A DNA stretch of 64,000 bases from an uncultured cyanobacterium (GTDB lineage Bacteria > Cyanobacteriota > Cyanobacteriia > Cyanobacteriales > CAWCAG01), in the NCBI GenBank assembly GCA_963803805.1, contig CAWDOD010000002.1:1280001-1344000 (forward strand), given 5' to 3'. Below, in pieces: positions 10,556 through 12,535 of the stretch; the first letter of the stretch is position 1; each line of letters begins with the position of its first letter. The notes beneath the pieces were generated by a model. It did no database searches and was not told where the DNA came from. It saw nothing but the letters and a program-made list of their open reading frames with translations. Made by a program: the position numbers and the translations under genes.

Positions 10556-11152
10556 TTAATTCAACTCGGAGTTGAACTCGTTGAAGGAACGCCTTTTCAA
10601 CTCCACTGACTCAGAACGAGGTAGGAGATCAAATACTTCCCGGAAAACACTATCAATGTCTTCAAACTTAGCTTGTCCAGTTTGATTAAAGACAATCTCA
10701 CGATTTTGATTTAGTAAGACAGTTTGAGGAATTGCCCCTTGGTAGTAATAACCTACTTCTTCAGGACTGTATTCAGCCTTGATCGGAATAGAATCGACAT
10801 TGATGGGAATAAAACTCGCTACTTTGCCGTAAAATCGCTGTAACTGAGAGATAACCTCAGAAAATCTTTTACAATCGCTGCTATCTTCTACATAAAAAAC
10901 TAACAGAGCAACTTTATCTCTTTGGAAAGATTCTACTAAGGTCATGCGAGGGGGGACTAAAGAGCCATTCCCGGCATAAAGAGCAAAGATATTGCCATCA
11001 AACCTGTCGTCTTCAAGCCCTGCTTTGGCTGAGGGGGTTCCGAAAAGCAAGAAACTGCTTAGCCCAGCTATGAGTATTATTGAGCAAAAACGAAAGCAAA
11101 TTTTTCTTAACTGAAGGTTATTTAGCCAGTGGTGCAACCGCGAAAAAATCAT
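10556..11152 (-). CDS. Thioredoxin-fold thylakoid membrane protein (photosystem I accumulation factor-like)
   Basis: Signal/TM then DDRFDGNIFALYAGNGSLVPP; start trimmed to ATG 11152 because the longer ORF overlaps the tRNA. Confidence 0.7.
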   Translation of the reverse strand: MIFSRLHHWLNNLQLRKICFRFCSIILIAGLSSFLLFGTPSAKAGLEDDRFDGNIFALYAGNGSLVPPRMTLVESFQRDKVALLVFYVEDSSDCKRFSEVISQLQRFYGKVASFIPINVDSIPIKAEYSPEEVGYYYQGAIPQTVLLNQNREIVFNQTGQAKFEDIDSVFREVFDLLPRSESVELKRRSFNEFNSELN

Positions 11153-11236
11153 AAGGTTCTTTTTACCAATTAAATCAGCTATTATTAATAGTACAGCTAG
11201 GGGCTGTGGCTCAGTTGGATAGAGCAAGCGCCTCCT

Positions 11237-12086
11237 GAACAATCGGGCCTCTTGGGGGAAACTCCAGGTAGTGAATGCGGTCAAATTCAAGGAAGCCTAA
11301 GTCTGTTTAAACAGAGAGGGTAATCTTGAGCCAAGCTTATATTTGTCTATATAGACAAGTTATTTGAAGGTGCAGAGACTGGTTGAATGAGAGCTAAAAA
11401 ATGATGGACTATGATGTCTCATCAAAAGTAGAGCAAAGAGGCATTCTGGCCGGGATGTTATTGGGTGCAGGCAGGAGAAATAAACAAAATTTCTATCTTC
11501 TAAACCTGAATTTGCCAGAGGAATATGTTCTATTTAAAAAGCAACTCCTTGAACAAATCATCCGTAAGCCAGTTAGTCTTCGGGAAAGAAAAACTAAAAA
11601 CGGTACTGCCTTAATACGCTTAGAGCCAAAGTTAATTCCCTTAACTAGGGTTTTGGTTAAAAAGTTTTATCAAGGAACAACTCCTAAAATTACGAGGAAG
11701 TTTCTTGGTCTTCTAACCCTTCCTAGTATCGCAATTTGGTTTATGGATAAAGGTTCTAAATCTTTTAAGAGAAAGAACGGAAAAATCCATAGCCTGGAAG
11801 TTAACTTCAATACCAATATCTGCCAAGCAGAAAACGAGTTGATAGTAGCTTATTTTGCTGAAGTTTGGGGTTTTAAGTGGGGATTAAGCCAAGGTAGAAA
11901 CGCTTACCGTTTAAGGATGGGGACGAAAGAAGGTAAAAGGTTTTTCCGTTTCCTTCATCCCTATATTCATCCCGCTATGCTCTACAAAATAGAAACCTCT
12001 TGTCAACATAACGGCCGCCACCTAAAAGAGTTTTGTTCTTATGGTGAAGGGATAGTCCAGAGAGTGGGGAAACTCACACAAATCTG
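11237..12086 (+). ncRNA. Group I intron (IC3/Azoarcus-like core), 850 nt, containing a LAGLIDADG ORF
   Basis: Exon U before 5' splice site and terminal G at 12086; P1 CCT|GA-ACAA-TCGGG; P2 with GAAA loop (11251-11268); AAATTCAAGGAA..AATCTTGAGCCAAG P4-P6; P7 GAGACT (11375-11380)/TAGTCC (12053-12058); P3 GCGGTC/GGCCGC; P8 CCTAA..TATGG receptor; P9 GTGGG-GAAA-CTCAC. Confidence 0.92.
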
Positions 12087-12087
12087 A
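11401..12087 (+). CDS. Intron-encoded double-motif LAGLIDADG (I-SceI-like) protein lacking catalytic aspartates; candidate maturase
   Basis: ILAGMLLGAG and SIAIWFMDKG match I-SceI GIGLILGDA and LAYWFMDDG; domain ends HPYIHPAMLYKI (cf. KPYLIPQMMYKL); very basic. Confidence 0.85.
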   Translation: MMDYDVSSKVEQRGILAGMLLGAGRRNKQNFYLLNLNLPEEYVLFKKQLLEQIIRKPVSLRERKTKNGTALIRLEPKLIPLTRVLVKKFYQGTTPKITRKFLGLLTLPSIAIWFMDKGSKSFKRKNGKIHSLEVNFNTNICQAENELIVAYFAEVWGFKWGLSQGRNAYRLRMGTKEGKRFFRFLHPYIHPAMLYKIETSCQHNGRHLKEFCSYGEGIVQRVGKLTQI

Positions 12088-12535
12088 AGCGCTAGGTCGC
12101 CGGTTCAAATCCGGCCAGTCCCGTTTTTTCAATGCTCAATGCTAAGTTATCTTGGTTTAGCCACTTAAGTTCAATCTAGTATAAGTAATAGTTTGTCTAA
12201 GTTCAGTTGGTTATTAAATCTTTTGAATTTACATAACTTCAACTTAAAATTTGTCAAGTCCCAAAAATTTCTCCAAAGGACGCATTTGTGTGGTTTAATT
12301 AGGAAATCAGAAAATTACACTGCTACGTTTTTGTCTAAAGTCAACATCAAATCTCTATAAGGTAGATAAATCGTTGGTTTTGATGCTATTTTTCCACAAA
12401 AGCATAGTGATAAGAAGGGCTAGGTCGAACAAATTTTGAGGCAATTTCAAAAGTTTTTTTGACAAATAAAGCGCTTTAAGTTAGAAGCAATTTGCTTGTG
12501 ACTTTTTTTGTCTATTCCATTTTTCTTCCTTGACA

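Follow-up and report, generated by a model that had tools for sequence, protein, structure and literature searches.

Group I introns are known in the tRNA-Arg(CCU) genes of alpha-proteobacteria and in the tRNA-Ile(CAU) gene of Azoarcus (subgroup IC3). The protein of the cyanobacterial tRNA-fMet intron, I-Ssp6803I, is of the PD-(D/E)XK type. The monomeric LAGLIDADG_2 homing endonucleases I-SceI and I-WcaI, on the other side, come from introns in yeast mitochondrial rRNA genes, and the loss of catalytic residues under continued selection is thought to be the origin of those LAGLIDADG proteins that do not cut DNA. In introns of subgroup IA, such as those of phage T4 td and of Twort, the elements P7.1 and P7.2 lie between P7 and P3'. 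Group I introns in the anticodon loops of bacterial tRNAs were reportedly described by Reinhold-Hurek & Shub in 1992 and by Paquin et al. in 1999.

An alpha-proteobacterial tRNA-Arg(CCU) intron is given for Bartonella bacilliformis in the accessible part of 10.1101/2020.08.04.235903, published as PMC7717549. [quoted passage not shown] The available text of PMC3984707 also names P7.1 and P7.2 as peripheral elements, cites Mo et al. 2011 for a maturase-like LAGLIDADG protein of a 23S intron of Thermotoga neapolitana, and states that an endonuclease may adopt a maturase role and thereby avoid loss. The "group I introns" of 22-49 nt that the available text of PMC5733544 gives for cyanobacterial tRNA-Arg(ACG), tRNA-Gly and tRNA-Lys were set aside as too short and located in other genes. 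Searches of open full text, a scope outside which the classic papers lie, turned up no account of a group I intron in tRNA-Arg(CCU) of cyanobacteria.

The locus reported here was found in the genome of an uncultured cyanobacterium, in a stretch of 64,000 nt that was analyzed as a whole (hereafter the window). Positions are those of the window, and all features lie on the + strand. When long introns were allowed, ARAGORN called a single tRNA-Arg(cct) at 11200-12123 with a spliced length of 74 nt, and a cloverleaf with the anticodon CCU was obtained once the intron was removed. Exon 1 (11200-11236, 37 nt) holds the 5' strand of the acceptor, the D arm, the 5' strand of the anticodon stem and the anticodon CCT. 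Exon 2 (12087-12123, 37 nt) holds A37, the 3' strand of the anticodon stem, the variable loop, the T arm, the 3' strand of the acceptor and the discriminator G; CCA is absent from the encoded exon, and the region gives a partial Rfam tRNA match of 19.8 bits. The intron (11237-12086, 850 nt) lies directly 3' of the anticodon, between base 36 and base 37. The preliminary description of this DNA had proposed the same two 37-nt exons and the same intron position, and had expected tRNA callers to overlook the gene. ARAGORN with introns agrees with it on the first two points, and the third is borne out as well: default ARAGORN and Rfam at the gathering score both returned nothing for the window.

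ARAGORN with introns allowed, run over the entire 5.3-Mb genome, gave 5 calls with introns out of 50, and an intron call alone is therefore weak evidence. The split-tRNA call stands because the same split was present in every related locus examined, that of the congener G001 included, because the fold covaries, and because the genome has no uninterrupted copy of tRNA-Arg(CCU). There was no other Arg(cct) among the 46 tRNAs called in the genome, where the remaining Arg tRNAs are acg, ccg and tct. Exon 1 was recovered in 44 related loci and in 50 further loci. In the relatives, 99-100% pairing was seen in the acceptor, anticodon and T arms; compensatory changes occur in the T arm, and the T-arm and acceptor pairs of exon 2 covary. 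We conclude, with a probability of roughly 0.8 for the explanation as a whole, that 11200-12123 is the sole gene for tRNA-Arg(CCU) in this genome, split after the anticodon by a group I intron that carries a LAGLIDADG ORF in an extra hairpin.

In the permissive mode of Rfam, Intron_gpI (RF00028) matched 11224-11551 with 43.3 bits (E 1.8e-9), below the cut-off of 50 bits. The 5' half of this alignment (P3-P7) is correctly placed. The 3' half is misplaced onto ORF sequence, because the true P3'/P8/P7'/P9 segment (12011-12086) follows the ORF; the score stays under the cut-off because the ORF splits the core. An ORF-less relative (L013) passes the cut-off (56.7 vs 50 bits) over the full model with its 3' segment aligned at full length, and L004 scores 53.2 bits against the same model.

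The pairings of the core were then followed through the window. The internal guide GGG (11245-11247) pairs with the exon bases CCU (11234-11236) as P1 (3/3), where the last base of exon 1, a U, forms the U.G pair at the 5' splice site; the guide columns are invariant in 24/24 relatives. The 5' half of the core (11248-11381), placed by the Rfam alignment and a pair check, consists in order of P2 with a GAAA loop, the 5' strand of P3 (11277-11282), P4, P5/P5a, P6/P6a and the 5' strand of P7, CAGAGACTG (11373-11381). Its pairs form in full (P3 6/6, P4 6/6, P5 2/2, P6 3/3, P7 6/6). The 3' half (12011-12086), placed by the pair check, consists of P3' (12013-12018; ACGGCC from 12011), P8 with a receptor-like CCUAAA...UAUGG motif, the 3' strand of P7 (TAGTCC, 12053-12058), P9.0 and P9, the latter capped by GAAA, and it ends with the last base of the intron, the terminal G (omega-G, 12086), which is invariant in 24/24 relatives. 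Here, too, the pairs are complete (P8 4/4, P8a 4/4, P7 6/6, P9.0 3/3, P9 5/5), and the P3/P7 pseudoknot and the remaining P3-P9 pairings all form. The 3' strand of P5 reads AGAGAGG in the window, against a family consensus of AGATANG.

Covariation was scored with a hand-drawn structure of P1-P9 plus the tRNA on 24 ORF-less relatives. Of the cells in this structure 96.9% are paired, and compensatory change on both sides is seen in 32 of the 91 pairs. In 500 shuffles the observed value was not attained for any of the five measures, and slid controls paired at 31-41%. The intron is thus a group I intron of the type of bacterial tRNA anticodon loops; the partial Rfam match, the full pairing and the covariation in 24 relatives uphold the P1-P9 assignment proposed at the outset. 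A second group I candidate in the genome (27.4 bits) was rejected, being absent at E<=0.001 and having neither tRNA halves nor a conserved core; it is probably a chance match.

The intron shares its host, tRNA-Arg(CCU), with the alpha-proteobacterial introns. It also appears to resemble the bacterial tRNA-loop introns in lying just 3' of the anticodon, with a U as the preceding base, in its small core, and in having GAAA loops on P2 and P9 and receptor-like motifs within P5 and P8. From the proteobacterial tRNA introns the present family differs in its cyanobacterial hosts and probably also in a further hairpin, inserted between P7 and P3', which most members have and which often holds a LAGLIDADG ORF. 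Like the Synechocystis tRNA-fMet intron, which encodes I-Ssp6803I, it encodes a protein of the homing-endonuclease type; unlike that intron, it resides in a different tRNA, and its ORF is of the I-SceI-type LAGLIDADG class.

The ORF had been described at first as lying in a J7/3 linker expanded to about 630 nt. The size and the place were right, since the insert between P7 and P3' is 629 nt and contains the LAGLIDADG gene, but the linker itself is not stretched: the ORF sits in the loop of a P7.1-like hairpin. The 5' strand of the hairpin, GTTGAATGAGAG (11382-11393), forms a duplex with the 3' strand, CTCTTGTCAAC (11997-12007), which is inside the coding region. The duplex has an energy of -11.1 kcal/mol, compared with -4.5 for shuffles, of which 2 in 200 reach -11.1. 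A Shine-Dalgarno-like GAGAG (11389-11393) lies within the 5' strand, and the reading frame takes in the 3' strand, P3' and the first part of P8.

All 54 distinct ORF-bearing introns have the same stem, with energies of -10 to -16.6 kcal/mol that at most 5 of 200 shuffles reach. It is conserved and covarying, and it occurs without an ORF too: 18 of the 24 ORF-less introns have it, and it is absent from the other 6. The gap between P7 and P3' is only 1-3 nt in the introns L022, L031, L034, L036, L040 and L044/45. In the other introns of the family it is filled by a hairpin of 34-65 nt or by an ORF insert of 625-661 nt, which measures 625-632 nt in all but one of the ORF-bearing introns; the ORF-less introns are 204-319 nt long. 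The hairpin resembles P7.1/P7.2 of subgroup IA in position, as an extra helix between P7 and P3'. It differs in being a single hairpin of a small tRNA-type intron, in being optional, and in housing an ORF.

The ORF (11401-12087, 228 aa), characterized from the ORF list, Pfam, PDB matches, AlphaFold2 and Foldseek, encodes a LAGLIDADG_2 protein of the I-SceI type. The match to PF03161 (E 2.9e-27, 96.1 bits against a cut-off of 25) agrees with the LAGLIDADG identity given in the preliminary description. The expectation that such an ORF would be annotated as a free-standing endonuclease also proved correct: in public records the homologues are stand-alone genes named either "LAGLIDADG/DNA endonuclease" or "hypothetical protein". 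Translation probably begins at the second ATG (11404), the conserved one. The stop codon, TGA, spans the 3' splice site (TG|A), whereas the ORFs of relatives stop 44-73 nt upstream of the intron end. The 3' strand of the hairpin in the window has one base more than in relatives, and the usual stop (TAA, 12023-12025, in P8) is consequently out of frame. The resulting extra tail, residues 203-228, has a pLDDT below 50. A scan of 10900-12400 for promoters and terminators gave nothing exceeding shuffles.

The AlphaFold2 model of the 228-aa protein (pLDDT 87, pTM 0.82) predicts a two-domain fold with two LAGLIDADG motifs in a single chain. The best Foldseek matches were I-WcaI (6x1j; TM 0.71, E 4e-12) and I-SceI (1r7m; TM 0.68, E 7e-10). 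The protein is thus similar to these two enzymes in its Pfam family, in its best sequence and fold matches, in having two motifs per chain and in being encoded inside a group I intron. It differs from them in sequence (about 20-23% identity), in the residues A23 and K117 that replace catalytic Asp, and in its bacterial tRNA intron host. The LAGLIDADG fold is also kept in the bI3 maturase (2ab5) and WhiA (3hyi), with Foldseek E values of 5.8e-7 and 3.6e-6; the modeled likeness to these proteins (TM about 0.5) is much weaker than that to I-SceI.

Motif 1 of the protein ends in ...GMLLGAG (A23) and motif 2 in ...WFMDKGS (K117). In the alignments A23 corresponds to the Asp within the ...LGD... of 6x1j, and K117 to the second of the two Asp residues in the WFMDDGG of I-SceI, whose D44 and D145 we take to be the catalytic residues. 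Neither LAGLIDADG helix therefore ends in an acidic residue. Among 120 relatives, the two catalytic columns are Asp/Asp in 33, have one acidic residue in 20 and none in 67, and the clade of the window lacks both acidic residues throughout. D116, which adjoins K117, is invariant in 120/120 relatives, and it might support an unusual chemistry.

The proteins without the acidic pair are nevertheless constrained. In a simple Nei-Gojobori count, in which the pairs are related and not independent of each other, the median dN/dS was 0.155 in the Asp/Asp clade (38 pairs), 0.19 in the Gln/Arg clade (15 pairs), 0.16 in the Trp/Lys clade (10 pairs) and 0.20 where Ala, Thr or Val is combined with Lys (4 pairs); the window and its congener gave 0.206. 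In 53 of the 54 distinct ORF-bearing introns the reading frame stays open over 206 aa or more, and one ORF, in L012/L097, is frameshifted.

Since Ala and Lys occupy the catalytic positions and the tail is both frameshifted and disordered, we consider it quite probable that the protein of the window does not cut DNA in the canonical manner. The label "endonuclease" may accordingly be wrong for this copy. Since the Asp-less copies are under purifying selection, a nucleic-acid-binding role has most likely been retained. In the loss of the canonical catalytic residues under continued selection the protein is similar to the non-cutting LAGLIDADG proteins, and our best guess, a tentative one, is that it aids the folding or splicing of its own intron. 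The ORF-less introns evidently cope without a protein, which speaks against such a helper. On the RNA side, P2 and P9 keep their GAAA tetraloops, and the receptor-like motifs are likewise kept, in ORF-less, Asp/Asp and "dead" introns alike; a decay of the RNA that would imply dependence on the protein was thus not seen.

The combination of host, intron and ORF had been thought unusual. It is rare in print, but it is common in genomes: in a sample of 400 other genomes of the phylum Cyanobacteriota, at least 49 have the intron, and the family is common yet overlooked in filamentous cyanobacteria. Many matches in this sample were to exon 1 only, representing intron-less tRNA-Arg(CCT) genes, and the distribution is patchy. 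Of 30 loci retrieved from the sample, 24 were ORF-less. On a core tree built from a short alignment without support values, ORF-bearing, hairpin-only and minimal introns interleave.

Whether the ORF always lies inside tRNA-Arg(CCT) was a question raised with the first description, and the answer is nearly always. The ORF homologues among 60 relatives were all inside a tRNA-Arg(CCU) intron (9/9). In a species-wide scan 51 of 53 homologue loci were in tRNA-Arg(CCU), 50 of them called as such and the 51st cut by the contig end with an Arg exon 2 downstream. The other two lie in a tRNA-Leu(UAA) intron, in Pyrinomonadaceae genomes. The tRNA-Leu(taa) gene of the present host genome is uninterrupted. 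A search for phage carriers gave five matching phage records, all from gut phages at about 30% identity and none of them close.

Parts of the window are contained in 13 RNA runs, four of which were examined as contigs. In one run, near-identical contigs extended across 11379-11996 in the ORF, which indicates only presence in an RNA library. No exon-exon junction of this organism was found among the RNA contigs from the four runs. The one contig joining 11236 to 12087 was rejected as evidence of splicing, being a metatranscriptome contig of 6.2 kb with 5 mismatches in exon 2; most likely the joint represents an intron-less allele of another organism.

Group I introns are spliced in two steps initiated by guanosine, and the structure of the present intron suggests the following course. 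The pre-tRNA would fold into the P1-P9 core, and free guanosine would attack after the last U of exon 1, held in its U.G pair by the guide GGG (11245-11247). The freed exon 1 would then attack after the terminal G at 12086, to give a 74-nt tRNA to which CCA would be added afterwards. Because the ribosome-binding site is in the 5' strand of the hairpin, and because the reading frame extends from the 3' strand through P3' into P8, folding of the hairpin and the core would be expected to compete with translation. In the Asp/Asp relatives, the protein would most likely drive homing into intron-less tRNA-Arg(CCU) genes.

A wider reading of these results, which we regard as possible but doubtful, concerns the family as a whole. 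According to it, the I-SceI-type protein of a widespread cyanobacterial Arg-CCU intron family has repeatedly lost both Asp residues while remaining under selection as strong as that on its active relatives. There, the window included, it would now serve as a maturase or a sequence-specific binder for the only tRNA-Arg(CCU) of the cell; its translation would be gated by P7.1, and the module of an ORF within P7.1 would have spread from one tRNA intron to another across phyla (Arg-CCU, Leu-UAA and possibly Asn-GUU).

It is also conceivable, if unlikely, that the protein of the window remains active in homing, as an endonuclease or nickase whose active site is non-canonical, and that the selection reflects ongoing homing. 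The intact ORF with its confident fold, the dN/dS of about 0.2 and the invariant D116 are consistent with this, and so are the patchy occurrence of the intron beside many intron-less tRNA-Arg(CCT) genes and the interleaving of the ORF-bearing, hairpin-only and minimal forms. However, Ala and Lys replace the catalytic Asp residues of I-SceI and I-WcaI, and the acidic pair is missing from the whole clade of the window. Outside the 33 Asp/Asp proteins the two columns are highly variable (Q/R, V/K, A/K, W/K, K/K and others), a variability that resembles relaxed constraint at those sites only.

That the ORF is a functionless relic nearing deletion, late in a homing cycle in which only the ribozyme matters to the cell, we consider improbable. 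Such a relic would agree with the lost catalytic residues, with the one-base insertion that extends the ORF across the core as far as the splice site and gives it a disordered tail, with the many relatives already without an ORF (24/30 loci in the phylum sample) and with the frameshift in L012/L097. It is difficult to reconcile with a dN/dS of 0.16-0.20 in wholly acid-less clades, equal to that of the canonical clade, with the open frames in 53/54 distinct ORFs, or with the nearly constant length of the insert. As for the possibility that the split gene is a pseudogene whose intron no longer splices, with tRNA-Arg(UCU) reading AGG, a tRNA-Arg(tct) gene does exist, the RNA contigs examined showed no spliced RNA, the ORF spans the whole 3' core so that translation could unfold it, and the 3' strand of P5 deviates, but the window keeps every core helix and every tRNA arm intact, together with the guide, the U.G pair and the terminal G, and these are conserved with the congener and dozens of species, the changes in the P7.1 stem are compensated, and we hold this to be very improbable.

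As standard pipelines miss the split gene, many cyanobacterial genomes seem to be without tRNA-Arg(CCU) and to contain a stray "DNA endonuclease"; the effect on annotation extends to at least 49 of 400 other genomes of the phylum and to 51 species-level ORF loci. As far as the searched literature reaches, tRNA-Arg(CCU) is the third tRNA host gene for cyanobacterial group I introns. The locus is an example of a LAGLIDADG gene inside a bacterial tRNA intron, and of an ORF placed between P7 and P3' and overlapping strands of the core. The cases of Leu-UAA and Asn-GUU in Pyrinomonadaceae suggest that further tRNA introns with an ORF between P7 and P3' exist. Canonical members, such as the Coleofasciculus form (L048), are candidate rare cutters of the I-SceI type with a defined target in a tRNA gene. 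The introns of the family form a natural series of minimal introns, hairpin-only introns, introns with a canonical endonuclease, and introns with a catalytically "dead" but conserved protein, and with this series both the long-discussed route by which a homing endonuclease becomes a maturase and the gain, decay and loss that make up the homing cycle can be tested directly in culturable bacteria.

The sequence from 11000 to 12400 was read, and ARAGORN with long introns allowed, a check named in the preliminary description, recovered a clean tRNA-Arg(CCU) of 74 nt at 11200-12123. Exon 1 (11200-11236, +) and exon 2 (12087-12123, +) are separated by an intron of 850 nt (11237-12086, +), which lies directly after the anticodon. 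Rfam at curated thresholds gave no match, and default ARAGORN found no tRNA in the whole window, as expected for a gene that escapes tRNA callers. The intron-allowing call is weak by itself, since five of the 50 calls made in this mode across the 5.3-Mb genome have introns. The other such calls are tRNA-SeC (1195-nt intron), tRNA-Glu(ttc), tRNA-Gln and tRNA-Val(tac); the last is probably a false join, because it spans a separate tRNA-Met gene seen in normal mode. The 46 normal-mode calls of the genome include Arg acg, ccg and tct and lack cct, which leaves the split gene as the sole tRNA-Arg(CCU) found. [quoted passage not shown] Its true start is probably further in, so that gene callers may extend the ORF over the tRNA.

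In the permissive mode of Rfam, the Intron_gpI model matched 11224-11551 (43.3 bits, E 1.8e-9, cut-off 50), the ORF splitting the core. The alignment was good for P3-P6 and the 5' strand of P7, and its 3' half was pushed into the ORF, since the genuine P3', P8, P7' and P9 lie at 12011-12086. The model was also to be checked without the ORF. A homologous locus, L013, is a natural ORF-removed control: its 259-nt intron at the same site matched the whole model at 56.7 bits. For covariation, 24 distinct ORF-less introns were aligned with their exons, and pairs were counted on a hand-written structure of P1-P9, with P7 as a pseudoknot, and the tRNA arms. Pairing was found in 96.9% of 2130 cells and both-side changes in 32 of the 91 pairs; on each of five measures the observed value lay beyond all 500 shuffles, and slid controls paired at 31-41%. 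The two core halves of the window, mapped onto this alignment by script, paired fully in P1 (3/3), P3 (6/6), P4 (6/6), P5 (2/2), P6 (3/3), P7 (6/6), P8 (4/4), P8a (4/4), P9.0 (3/3) and P9 (5/5). P2 and P6a seem to mispair only because the alignment is shifted in these variable-length helices; P6 is also paired in Rfam's own alignment of the window. A G of the guide GGG (11245-47) pairs with the last U of exon 1, and the final base of the intron is G (12086). Elsewhere in the genome, Intron_gpI gave one further weak match (G000:C2:997698-997787, 27.4 bits). This locus lacks a split tRNA, drops out at E<=0.001 and probably reflects chance.

Pieces of the window were present in four metatranscriptome runs, in which no spliced RNA was seen. 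A lone exon-exon joint is best read as the intron-less gene of another organism. Contigs from these runs (X1-X4), representing several habitats, match the window at 11319-11338/12040-12072, with high depth over the conserved 3' core and exon 2 and with other flanks. Related tRNA-Arg introns are therefore common in environmental RNA libraries.

The ORF (11401-12087, 228 aa) matches Pfam LAGLIDADG_2 with E 2.9e-27. At the spot between P7 and P3', the introns show 1-3 nt (loci L022, L031, L034, L036, L040 and L044/45), a hairpin of 34-65 nt, or an ORF-bearing insert of 625-661 nt. Compensated variants of the hairpin stem are many, such as GTTGTAGG/CCTACAAC, GTTACAGA/TCTGTAAC, GTTATAGG/CCTATAAC and TTTAAGGAG/CTCCTTAAA. 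A duplex flanks the ORF in all 54 distinct ORF-bearing introns (-10 to -16.6 kcal/mol), and at most 5 of 200 shuffles were as stable; the window's own duplex, 11382-93 with 11997-12007, has -11.1 kcal/mol. Since the flanks pair in every case, the ORF sits in the loop of an extra hairpin. The J7/3 placement of the preliminary description thus holds as to position, between the 5' strand of P7 (11373-81) and P3' (from 12011), and is amended as to structure. Subgroup IA introns carry P7.1/P7.2 at the matching place.

Shine-Dalgarno-like bases lie on the 5' strand of the hairpin, as GAGAG in the window and as AAGGAG in other introns. The coding sequence takes in the 3' side of the hairpin, P3' and the beginning of P8. 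Because these elements are coding, folding and translation of one RNA should be mutually exclusive. Passages of a review state that ORFs reaching into the core require tight control (PMC3984707). The usual stop in most relatives is TAA within the CACCTAA of P8. In the window, a single additional base in the hairpin 3' strand shifts the frame past this TAA; reading goes on across P3', P8, P7' and P9 and ends at a TGA that spans the splice site. The resulting tail (residues 203-228) is predicted to be disordered in an AlphaFold2 model. In eight of the 54 ORF-bearing introns (L005, L012, L033, L047, L074, L075, L082 and L096), ATA replaces the start ATG of the others, 8-10 nt after AAGGAG and with no alternative start codon between. 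In all eight, the catalytic position of motif 1 is acidic (Asp or Glu). The ATA may initiate poorly and so hold expression down.

Among 60 same-order relatives, an ORF homologue occurs in nine and the ORF-less intron in a further one, all ten in tRNA-Arg(cct) at the same site. When 400 other genomes of the phylum were scanned at DNA level with a query of exon 1 and the 5' core, the match continued into the intron in at least 49 (48 labelled same order, one same class) and covered exon 1 only in many others; 30 fetched loci comprised 24 ORF-less (204-319 nt) and six ORF-bearing introns. The protein database held 155 ORF relatives at E<=1e-5, with Coleofasciculus, Oscillatoria, Symploca, Laspinema, Lyngbya, Phormidium, Spirulina and others as named sources. 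These are labelled stand-alone endonucleases or hypothetical proteins, much as had been anticipated. A species-wide genome scan gave 53 ORF loci, of which 50 were called inside a tRNA-Arg(cct) intron; one more ends at a contig edge with Arg exon 2 downstream. Whether the ORF always lies in this tRNA had been asked, and the other two loci lie in a tRNA-Leu(UAA) intron. None of these statements depends on G447, an unpublished genome.

In two Pyrinomonadaceae genome bins (loci L093/L099, 1315-2323, and L098/L100), a 56%-identical Asp/Asp LAGLIDADG ORF lies in a tRNA-Leu(UAA) intron of 921 nt, directly after the 5' strand of P7 and with the flanking stem GAATTGGAG/CTCCAATTC. This is the same ORF-in-hairpin module in a different tRNA and phylum. 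At L102 (1285-2220), from the same family, ARAGORN calls tRNA-Asn(GUU) with an 862-nt intron (Intron_gpI 48.3 bits, E 3.7e-10), and a 43%-identical Asp/Asp LAGLIDADG ORF begins just after CAGAGACTG, after P7. We know of no described group I intron in tRNA-Asn.

The AlphaFold2 model of the ORF product (pLDDT 87, pTM 0.82) was closest in structure comparison to I-WcaI (TM 0.71) and I-SceI (TM 0.68), and weaker matches included bI3 maturase and WhiA. In sequence alignments, A23 corresponds to the Asp of LGD and K117 to the second Asp of WFMDDGG, a pair that we take to be the catalytic D44/D145 of I-SceI. Of 120 relatives, 33 carry Asp/Asp in these two columns, 20 carry a single acidic residue and 67 have no acidic residue there, and adjoining columns are near-invariant. 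Both acidic residues are missing from the deep clade to which the window belongs. Median dN/dS was 0.155 for the Asp/Asp clade (38 pairs), and the Asp-less clades were on par: 0.19 for Gln/Arg (15 pairs), 0.16 for Trp/Lys (10 pairs) and 0.20 for Ala, Thr or Val with Lys (4 pairs; 0.206 between the window and its congener). The frame is open for at least 206 aa in 53 of 54 distinct ORFs. These facts speak for a function that has been kept, rather than for simple decay. Help in splicing would be the most natural candidate; tetraloops and receptor motifs, equally kept across ORF classes, gave no RNA-side sign of protein dependence. A non-canonical nuclease is another candidate.

Full-text searches of the open literature, whose reach did not extend to key older papers, turned up no report that tRNA-Arg(CCU) of a cyanobacterium harbours a group I intron, or that such an intron holds a LAGLIDADG gene; passages of PMC3984707, PMC5733544, PMC8450103, PMC2686568, PMC4853749, PMC12220804 and PMC4023601 gave none either. 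Only Leu(UAA) and fMet are named as previously known cyanobacterial tRNA group I introns in passages of PMC5733544 and PMC8450103. We rate the case as an ordinary mechanism in a new arrangement of host gene and ORF, to which the protein side adds an interesting and testable twist.
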